This document shows positions 49,409-50,474 of a DNA stretch of 64,000 bases, in pieces. The position numbers were made by a program, and so were the translations under genes. This stretch comes from Candidatus Methylomirabilota bacterium. Its GTDB lineage: Bacteria; Methylomirabilota; Methylomirabilia; Rokubacteriales; CSP1-6. The DNA lies in contig DASTCJ010000210.1 of NCBI GenBank assembly GCA_035605575.1, positions 8,515 to 72,514 on the forward strand. The letters are read 5' to 3'. Numbering within the stretch: the stretch's first letter is position 1; every line of letters starts with the position of its first letter. The notes under the pieces were generated by a model, which worked only from the letters and a program-made list of their open reading frames with translations, had not been told where the DNA came from and searched no databases.

Positions 49409-49816
49409 TTAAGGAACGCGAACCGTGGAGTTGTCGCCGGTCGCCGAGATCGTGAACACGCCAGTCGATGTATCGGCGGTGTAGCTATACGCCGACCAGC
49501 CCGAAGGCCCGGCTGGGACCGACGCCATGAACGGGCCGGCCACCTGGTTCTGCGCGTTCGTCACGGCCGACGTCAGCTGTGTCAGAGCCGTCGGCACGAT
49601 ACCCATGTGCGCGCCGTAGATCGACGCCGCCGACGTCAACGCACGAGCGTCAGCCTGGGCCTTCGCAATGCGCGCTCGCTGCTGCACGTTGGCGTACAGC
49701 GGAATCGCGATCGCGGCCAGAATACCGATAATGGCCACGACGATGAGCAGCTCGATCAGCGTGAAGCCGCGCTGACCGGCTGGTACCGCTACGCGCTTAC
49801 GAAATGCCTGCACCAT
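49409..49816 (-). CDS. pilA: Type IVa major pilin (copy 1, distal)
   Basis: ATG at 49816 gives [41 protein letters not shown]... The mature protein is 118 aa with no Cys. Confidence 0.9.
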
Positions 49817-49875
49817 AAAGGCTCCCCCTTGTGTGTGAGACGCGCCTACGCGCCGATGCGTCATTGCGGCGCGGT

Positions 49876-49891
49876 TGCACGGGGAATGCCA
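49876..49891 (-). promoter_or_regulatory. Sigma-54 promoter for pilA copy 1
   Basis: The minus strand reads TGGCAT-tcccc-GTGCA with correct GG/GC spacing, about 60 nt upstream of the ATG. Confidence 0.55.
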
Positions 49892-50017
49892 TAGCTCGAG
49901 CGGGGCCGATCGTCCGTATTCTTGAGAAGTTCCGACGAACCTCCCGGGCACGACGTGGATCGCCCGGACATATCGCTCGGATAGACTGACACCTTTCGTC
50001 AATCGGCTCGAAGAATA

Positions 50018-50047
50018 AAAAGGGGAGAGATTGCTCTCTCCCCTTTT
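50018..50047 (-). terminator. Intrinsic terminator of pilA copy 2 (bidirectional form)
   Basis: Perfect 13-bp stem aaaaggggagaga-ttgc-tctctcccctttt, with A/T runs on both sides, 20 nt after the stop codon. Confidence 0.8.
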
Positions 50048-50066
50048 CATGCTTGGGACACGATGG

Positions 50067-50474
50067 TTAAGGAACCGTGACGGTCGTGTTGTCACCCGAC
50101 GCCGAGATCGTGAACACGCCGGTCGAAGTGTCGGCGGTGTAGCTATACGCCGACCAGCCGGACGGGCCGGCCGGGACCGACGCCATGAACGGGCCAGCCA
50201 CCTGGTTCTGGGCGTTCGTCACCGCCGACGTCAGCTGCGTGAGAGCCGTCGGCACGATACCCATGTGGGCGCCGTAGATCGATGCCGCGGACGTCAGCGC
50301 ACGGGCGTCAGCCTGCGCCTTCGCGATACGAGCGCGCTGCTGCACGTTCGCGTACAGCGGGATCGCGATCGCCGCCAAGATACCGATGATCGCGACGACG
50401 ATCAGAAGCTCGATCAGCGTGAAGCCATGCTGACCGCCCAGCACGGTCCGTTTGCGGTGCCAGAACTTCGTCAT
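50067..50474 (-). CDS. pilA: Type IVa major pilin (copy 2, proximal to pilR)
   Basis: 135-aa [30 protein letters not shown]... Strong SD (AGGAGG, 5-nt spacer). Confidence 0.9.

Follow-up and report, generated by a model that had tools for sequence, protein, structure and literature searches.

Tandem type IV pilin genes with an identical mature core in a Rokubacteria genome: old paralogues, probably shaped by purifying selection and partial gene conversion

The window analysed here, a stretch of 64,000 nucleotides from a Candidatus Methylomirabilota bacterium (contig DASTCJ010000210.1), contains two complete pilA genes in tandem, copy B upstream and copy A downstream, which both encode the major pilin of a type IVa pilus gene cluster. 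Although their codons differ at many synonymous sites, the two genes specify the same protein over nearly the whole mature part. From the comparison with related loci, we consider it likely that they are old tandem paralogues and that their identical core has two causes, namely purifying selection over mature codons 1–37 and gene conversion over codons ~38–109. In codons 1–37 the copies would long have been separate, with a synonymous divergence like that between unrelated members of the family, while purifying selection on the helix held the protein. Codons ~38–109, which encode the last part of the helix together with the globular domain, would have undergone intragenomic gene conversion between the copies after the split from the sampled relatives. 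Since that conversion, 17 synonymous and zero replacement changes would have been gained, partly by luck. The leader and the last codons, which lie at the edges of a 371-bp homology block, would mostly have escaped conversion and kept their A-type or B-type state.

The pilin gene pair

Copy B (50067..50474, minus strand) and copy A (49409..49816, minus strand) each encode a prepilin of 135 codons followed by a stop codon, and both score above the cut-offs of the Pfam models N_methyl and T2SSG. They are arranged head to tail with an intergenic gap of 250 bp; the 658 bp given as their spacing in the preliminary description of this DNA is the start-to-start distance. An AGGAGG motif is located 7 nt ahead of the ATG of copy B, and the start of copy A is kept in related loci. 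An open reading frame of 228 amino acids that begins at a GTG at 50095 was rejected as the copy A gene, being a mechanical extension.

Translated and compared codon by codon, the copies align without gaps and have 85 codons in common; of the others, 36 differ synonymously and 15 by an amino acid replacement. Mature residues 1–108 (prepilin residues 18–125) are the same protein in A and B, with 292 of 324 nucleotides identical. The 32 codons that differ in this core are 100% synonymous, 30 of them at the third position and two as first-position TTG/CTG differences, which agrees with the hand alignment in the preliminary description. The formal codon comparison by the Nei-Gojobori method likewise yielded 32 synonymous differences (Sd) and no nonsynonymous differences (Nd 0) for the 108-codon core, corresponding to a number of synonymous substitutions per synonymous site (dS) of ~0.50. 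Also as described before, the two leaders of 17 residues are largely different (24 of 51 nt identical) and the last 10 residues contain three substitutions, T126S, S130T and R133T, next to three further synonymous changes; between the whole mature proteins, 3 of 118 residues differ. The homology between the copies forms one ungapped block of 371 bp with 88.1% identity (B 50436..50066 versus A 49778..49408), which spans prepilin codon 13–14 to the stop codon and has flanks without detectable homology.

All sequences used in this study are from metagenome assemblies or metagenome-assembled genomes (MAGs), none from isolates, and the copies or their mosaic could in principle have been produced from mis-joined strain variants. 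We find such an assembly artefact hardly conceivable. The exact copy B protein is present on 14 contigs from independent samples, three of which (L081–L083) carry both genes with only 0–2 nt different from the window pair; the tandem pair is therefore real. The arrangement was recovered with independent assemblers as well, the identical runs between A and B (up to 29 nt) are far below the assembly k-mer length, and the flanks, promoter and leader are distinct for each copy.

Mosaic ancestry of the mature part

A protein search returned more than 7,500 relatives, many of them 80–97% identical. The comparison set consisted of seven other lineages (L002, L087, L088, L093, L094, L095 and L096) with the same pilS-pilR-pilA-pilA-TPR-pilD locus, which together with the window pair amount to 16 genes from 8 loci; we use the suffixes A and B for their downstream and upstream copies. 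With L002 not compared, the pilR genes of these relatives have a dS of 0.8–1.1 to the pilR of the window and an omega (dN/dS, the ratio of nonsynonymous to synonymous substitution rates) of 0.05–0.09, and the compared loci are distinct species-level lineages. The leaders of every compared lineage follow the pattern MxKFW..KR..GxQ[HR]G in the upstream copy and MLQ[AS][FLV]R.... in the downstream copy, and therefore the duplication predates all these lineages. Since lineages with a pilR dS of ~0.8–1.1 have the leader types, both promoters and, for the most part, the C-terminal tips in common, the earlier view that the duplication is not recent is upheld. Pairwise dN/dS over 80 genome loci was mostly near synonymous saturation, which makes a simple dating of the duplication impossible.

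In the genome collection, almost all contigs with a related locus are labelled Candidatus Rokubacteria, Rokuibacteriota or Methylomirabilota. Six contigs (L002, L017, L018, L029, L052 and L054) carry MAG labels of Gemmatimonadaceae, Verrucomicrobiia, Nitrosotalea or Zixiibacteriota; mis-binning is the likely reason for this labelling, and horizontal transfer a less likely one.

The 5' and 3' parts of the mature genes have different closest relatives. Over mature codons 1–52, the window copies differ from each other at 20 nucleotides, which is about the background level, whereas copy A differs from L087A at 10 and copy B from L095B at 12. Over codons 53–108, the window copies differ from each other at 12 nucleotides and from any other gene at 19–35. 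Restricting the count to protein-invariant codons gives the same picture: in the 5' part the window copies have 20 differences and rank 11th of 15, with 7 differences between copy A and L087A, whereas in the 3' part they have 6 differences and rank first, all other comparisons having at least 9–12. Because the closeness in the 3' part persists at protein-invariant codons, protein-level convergence is not its cause. Within-genome closeness at synonymous sites of the 3' part was also found in five further lineages.

Tree and site-pattern analyses are in line with these counts. In neighbour-joining bootstraps of codons 1–52, none of 300 replicates placed the window copies as sisters, and copy A grouped with L087A and L093A in 77%; for codons 53–108, the window copies were sisters in 82%, and the A and B copies of the same locus were sisters in 7 of the 8 loci. 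Informative sites in quartets grouped the genes by A or B type at codons 6–36 and 114–116, plus one or two isolated sites (52, 76), and by genome at codons 38/41–109 (permutation p of 0.0008 and below 1e-4). The grouping thus switches from type to genome at codon 36–41.

Consequently, each gene can be divided into parts of different history. The leader and mature codons 1–37 of copy A (49655..49816, minus strand) have A-type orthology and are closest to L087A and L093A; those of copy B (50313..50474, minus strand) have B-type orthology and in this lineage have escaped homogenisation with A. The putatively homogenised tracts, mature codons 38–109 with approximate limits, are 49439..49654 in copy A and 50097..50312 in copy B, both on the minus strand. 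As judged from sequence, codons ~38–109 bear a gene-conversion signature that spares the leader, the mature part up to about one third of its length, and the last few codons, and we infer conversion as the mechanism from this pattern and the mosaic phylogeny. The preliminary description had argued against homogenisation by gene conversion, which fails for mature codons ~38–109 in view of the 12 differences against 19–35 and the switch at codon 36–41.

One alternative holds that there was no conversion, and that each copy has evolved on its own ever since an old duplication while very strong purifying selection alone kept the core. It would agree with a dS of ~0.5 and a dN of 0 over 108 codons and with the lack of a long identical tract, and it fits codons 1–37, which retain their orthology and encode an invariant protein. 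As an account of the entire core we consider it improbable: in codons 38–109 the nearest relatives are found within the genome at purely synonymous sites, and in every lineage both copies have lineage-specific amino acids in common, such as T92, G94 and Q107 in L087 and L095, or A66, V67, I92 and N109 in L088. Moreover, orthologues at a similar synonymous distance differ by 2–11 residues, and the protein is therefore insufficiently constrained for identity to result from selection alone.

Selection could also have acted on identity as such, since both pilins would build one filament, by favouring the same amino acid changes in both copies or by sweeping very short conversion patches with a favoured change to fixation; either way, the synonymous sites would remain diverged. 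The zero replacements in the window and L095 pairs are compatible with this, as are residues T56 and A88, which the L093 copies share despite an Sd of 43. We nevertheless deem it very improbable, since sites that are synonymous only are equally close within the genome, and since synonymous states that involve several nucleotides are shared: at position 100, both L088 copies have an AGC serine codon, versus TCG. In addition, the pooled replacement-to-synonymous ratio over codons 53–108 is no lower in the other seven within-genome pairs (~0.27) than in the six closest orthologue comparisons (~0.22), which argues against a general extra constraint that keeps the copies identical.

A third possibility is lateral allele exchange, in which parts of pilA were replaced from other Rokubacteria lineages and not between the two copies. 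The pilA orthologues differ in their 5' part (49655–49765 and 50313–50423 in the window) at only 7–11 of 50 protein-invariant codons, whereas between the same genomes the adjacent pilR genes have a proportion of differing synonymous sites (pS) of 0.49–0.53. This low divergence could be due to lateral exchange of pilin alleles or to codon bias, which in a very highly expressed gene also predicts a low synonymous divergence. Lateral exchange does not explain why the 3' parts are closest within the genome in 7 of 8 lineages, and we regard it as quite improbable as the origin of the mosaic.

Constraint on the protein

Purifying selection on both copies, which the preliminary description had called very strong, is real in the N-terminal helix: across the 16 genes, 50 of the 52 codons at positions 1–52 are invariant in protein, with synonymous sites near saturation. 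These codons encode the pilin helix, which is more conserved than any other part of type IV pilins, and a lack of replacements between the copies is to be expected in them. For the converted tract the claim was overstated. In codons 38–108, the window pair has 17 synonymous differences and no replacement, and the replacement-to-synonymous ratio pooled over the other seven within-genome pairs is 0.25. The probability of no replacement among 17 changes is then ~0.02 for codons 38–108 and ~0.05–0.06 for codons 53–108 (Fisher 0.046 and 0.12, respectively). We conclude that the window pair is a lucky extreme within an ordinary distribution, and that it was noticed for that reason. These ratios are based on sister pairs from the close clade, which replaced an earlier comparison of replacement counts at matched C-terminal synonymous counts among 194 unique genes; the latter was misleading because low synonymous counts also occur between very divergent genes.

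Several observations weigh against the combined action of selection and conversion proposed here. The absence of replacements in the converted tract is somewhat under expectation (P 0.02–0.06). Taken alone, the window pair has no long identical tract, and recent conversion tracts within it were looked for and not found; the converted tract is undetectable from this pair by itself; the longest identical run in the pair is 29 nt, with 34 expected, and the contrast in difference density between the 5' and 3' parts has a p of only 0.08. The case rests on relatives that are themselves fairly distant (pilR dS 0.8–1.1), the synonymous sites of pilA are close to saturation, so that dates are rough, and the data are metagenome assemblies rather than isolate genomes. 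The mosaic could in part stem from pilA alleles exchanged laterally between lineages.

The pattern of the window extends to the wider family, which comprises 207 genes from 178 loci with 37 adjacent pairs, whose pS ranges from 0 to saturation. In a sister clade, the upstream gene has an FW-type leader and the downstream gene an MFRKR-type leader, and the mature parts are nearly identical. As a rule, these pilin loci thus undergo repeated homogenisation of the mature part and retain distinct leaders. Tandem arrays of four pilin genes are present in L017 (3334–5419) and L160 (573–2660), which suggests expansion and contraction by unequal crossing-over.

Leaders and C-terminal ends

The differences between the two proteins are confined to the leader and the C-terminal tail. 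The tail of copy B, mature codons 110–118 plus the stop codon (50067..50096, minus strand), reads ...GDNTTVTVP with Thr at position −3, and that of copy A (49409..49438, minus strand) reads ...GDNSTVRVP with Arg at −3. Every A copy with a complete C-terminus, seven in total, has this Arg, in four different codons (L087A ends at a contig edge), and Thr is present in 7 of the 8 B copies. In the set of the 120 closest database proteins, 9 of 14 with an A-type leader have Arg at −3, versus 12 of 79 with a B-type leader (p = 0.0003).

Both the leader and the tail are located at the borders of the homology block, which conversion would seldom reach, and this position alone can explain why the differences are confined to them. 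The tail nevertheless gives some indication that its identity is maintained. We therefore also considered that selection keeps two isoforms apart by leader and Arg/Thr tip, while conversion equalises the remainder for assembly into one filament; the association of Arg with the leader and the use of four Arg codons point this way without being proof. We rate this addition as unlikely. If it were true, the supply of pilin might be tunable through leader-specific handling, and so might the surface charge of a mixed pilus or its glycosylation by the TMTC-like neighbouring protein described below.

The N-x-T tripeptide, which both tails retain and to which the preliminary description had drawn attention, finds no support in conservation: in the 207 family genes, the three commonest residues in the column of the asparagine are S (65), N (57) and G (55). 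An N-glycosylation sequon at the tail was accordingly rejected. The D-N-x-T sequence also deviates from the D/E-x-N-x-S/T spacing that characterises the bacterial sequon, which we counted against the glycosylation idea.

Pilin type and predicted structure

Both copies have the prepilin motif G/FTLIELL behind the 17-residue leader, with Gly at −1, Phe at +1 and Glu at +5. They score 36–40 bits with Pfam N_methyl (cut-off 21.2) and exceed the own cut-off of TIGR02532. An AlphaFold2 model of the pilin has a mean pLDDT (predicted local distance difference test) of 82.7, with a helix at residues 20–71 and strands at 111–115, 120–127 and 130–134. The best Foldseek matches of this model are EpsG, the gonococcal pilin and Thermus PilA4, with probabilities of 0.97–1.0 and a TM-score of ~0.5, at E-values of only ~0.05–0.2. 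The predicted fold is the usual lollipop of pilins. With the GspG model TIGR01710, the pilin scores 59 bits, which is under the cut-off of 88.85. In place of the short leader (typically <10 residues) and C-terminal disulphide D-region of PilA, it has a leader of 17 residues and a mature protein free of cysteine, and is therefore an atypical, small, GspG-like pilin.

Transcription signals

Each copy is preceded by a sigma-54-type −24/−12 element on the minus strand, GGCATGGTGCCTGCA at 50527..50541 ahead of copy B and TGGCATTCCCCGTGCA at 49876..49891 ahead of copy A, and both elements are present in 8 of 8 related loci. The distance from their common form GGCA-N7-TGCA, which has three matches in total in the window, to the start codon is 52 nt for copy B (match at 50527–50541) and 59 nt for copy A (match at 49876–49890). 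The sole other perfect match to TGGCAY-N6-TGCW in the window is at 17101–17116 on the plus strand. Further upstream of the sigma-54-type elements are TGTC motifs, also conserved in all eight loci, which resemble PilR binding sites. A scan of the region for sigma-70 promoters gave no sites. Directly 3' of copy B, a G+C-rich hairpin followed by a run of T (50022..50043, minus strand) is formed by an inverted repeat that is kept in related loci, and looks like an intrinsic terminator. With a promoter motif of their own and a terminator-like hairpin after copy B, the copies are predicted to be transcribed as separate units, and the same regulator probably controls both. That they are co-expressed is presumed here, as would be any functional difference between the mature proteins.

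The G+C content at third codon positions is 0.787 in copy A and 0.860 in copy B, compared with 0.82–0.875 in the neighbouring genes. At the 32 differing sites, copy A has A or T in 13 and copy B in 7. This composition suggests a weaker codon selection on the downstream copy A, and copy B, with its higher value, could be the more strongly expressed gene.

Gene cluster

The cluster has the order pilB-pilC-pilS-pilR-pilA-pilA-(TPR membrane protein)-pilD, with all genes on the minus strand. It comprises pilB (54931–56667; TIGR02538, 732 bits, above cut-off), pilC (53691–54914), pilS for a sensor kinase with a PilS-type domain of six transmembrane helices (52055..53674), pilR for a sigma-54-dependent response regulator (50650..52062), the two pilA copies, a gene for a 644-amino-acid polytopic membrane protein with C-terminal TPR repeats (47394..49328), and pilD for a prepilin peptidase of family A24 (46640..47392). 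The assembly ATPase PilB has an N-terminal MshE-type motif for binding of cyclic di-GMP (NF053729, E-value 6.7e-19), which hints at a control of piliation by this messenger. Next to pilB, on the side opposite to pilC, lies a gene for a 326-residue protein (56677–57657, minus strand), the C-terminal half of which matches macro-domain models for ADP-ribose binding or hydrolysis. A 929-residue protein encoded at 42151–44940 (minus strand) has a weak match to tip adhesins of the Neisseria PilC/PilY1 type (E-value 5.8e-10, far under the family cut-off). An Rfam scan of the window found nothing.

The 644-amino-acid protein is encoded between pilA copy A and pilD in every related locus. Residues W62-D63-D64 after the first transmembrane helix and K223...T228 are invariant, and the TPR repeats span residues 465–642. 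A conserved DD in the first outer loop belongs to the motifs described for TMTC proteins (PMC7801869), which the invariant W-D-D and K223...T228 resemble, and homologues bear the Joint Genome Institute name 'protein O-mannosyl-transferase'. The membrane domain had no Pfam match at E-values up to 5 and no match in the PDB, either by sequence with phmmer or with a profile of the N-terminal domain, and a Foldseek search with the full model gave a list dominated by TPR proteins. The protein may be a TMTC-like glycosyltransferase of the GT-C type that glycosylates the Ser/Thr-rich pilin. The conservation of this candidate pilin glycosyltransferase beside the pilin genes makes it a testable lead.

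Significance and comparison with known systems

The pilin pair carries a methodological caution, as an identical protein with many synonymous differences between paralogues is not interpretable from the pair alone. In Rokubacteria, a phylum of soil bacteria, major-pilin genes are commonly tandem and separately promoted, in numbers of up to four, with distinct leaders and mature parts that evolve in concert. This is of use for genome annotation, for the choice of pilA as a marker gene and for the study of compatibility between paralogous filament subunits. Our literature search found no direct precedent for Rokubacteria pilins or for concerted evolution of tandem pilA genes.

Neisseria pilE/pilS is the pilin system in which conversion likewise acts on the globular-domain part of the gene and leaves out the conserved 5' part. 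There, the pilS cassettes are silent, promoterless and 5'-truncated, and one-directional conversion creates diversity; both pilA copies are full length, with ribosome-binding site, start, promoter motif and leader, and exchange makes them alike. Antigenic variation of the Neisseria type was ruled out for this pair, in which both copies are complete. Streptococcus sanguinis has tandem major pilins, PilE1 and PilE2, that build mixed filaments, and multiple pilA homologues are reportedly present in myxobacteria (PMC3776727). These paralogues resemble the pilA pair as adjoining major-pilin genes in a type IV pilus cluster, but differ substantially in the mature protein, compared with only 3 of 118 residues here.

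Outside the pilins, birth-and-death evolution under strong purifying selection, as in histones H3/H4 and ubiquitin (Nei and Rooney), results in identical proteins with high synonymous divergence. This applies to mature codons 1–37 and fails at codons 38–109, where the copies cluster by genome. The latter resemblance within the genome, closer than to orthologues, is shared with tufA/tufB of Salmonella, full-length expressed paralogues that exchange sequence by RecA-type conversion. The tuf genes lie apart in the genome and hardly differ at any site, whereas the pilA copies are tandem, their last exchange would be old (pS ~0.27), and the ends are excluded. For frog ATP1A1, a preprint describes tandem duplicates in which functional divergence is opposed by ongoing gene conversion (bioRxiv 10.1101/2020.08.04.234435); the Arg/Thr difference at −3 might be understood on this model, but the frog protein is a eukaryotic ion pump.

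The closest known parallel is flaA/flaB of Campylobacter jejuni, tandem flagellin genes that are 95% identical and have separate promoters, and for which intragenomic recombination was proposed in a study whose references include papers on the concerted evolution of fla (PMC5126078). As in the window, these are complete tandem genes for the subunit of a surface filament, with an identity of ~90–95% within either pair, each with its own promoter, that of flaB being sigma-54 dependent. Unlike the flagellin genes, which use different sigma factors, the two pilA copies belong to a type IV pilus and both have sigma-54-type promoters, and homogenisation in the present lineage would be limited to the 3' two-thirds of the mature part. 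The Rokubacteria pilin pair is thus a fresh example of a known process, concerted evolution, in an uncultured phylum.

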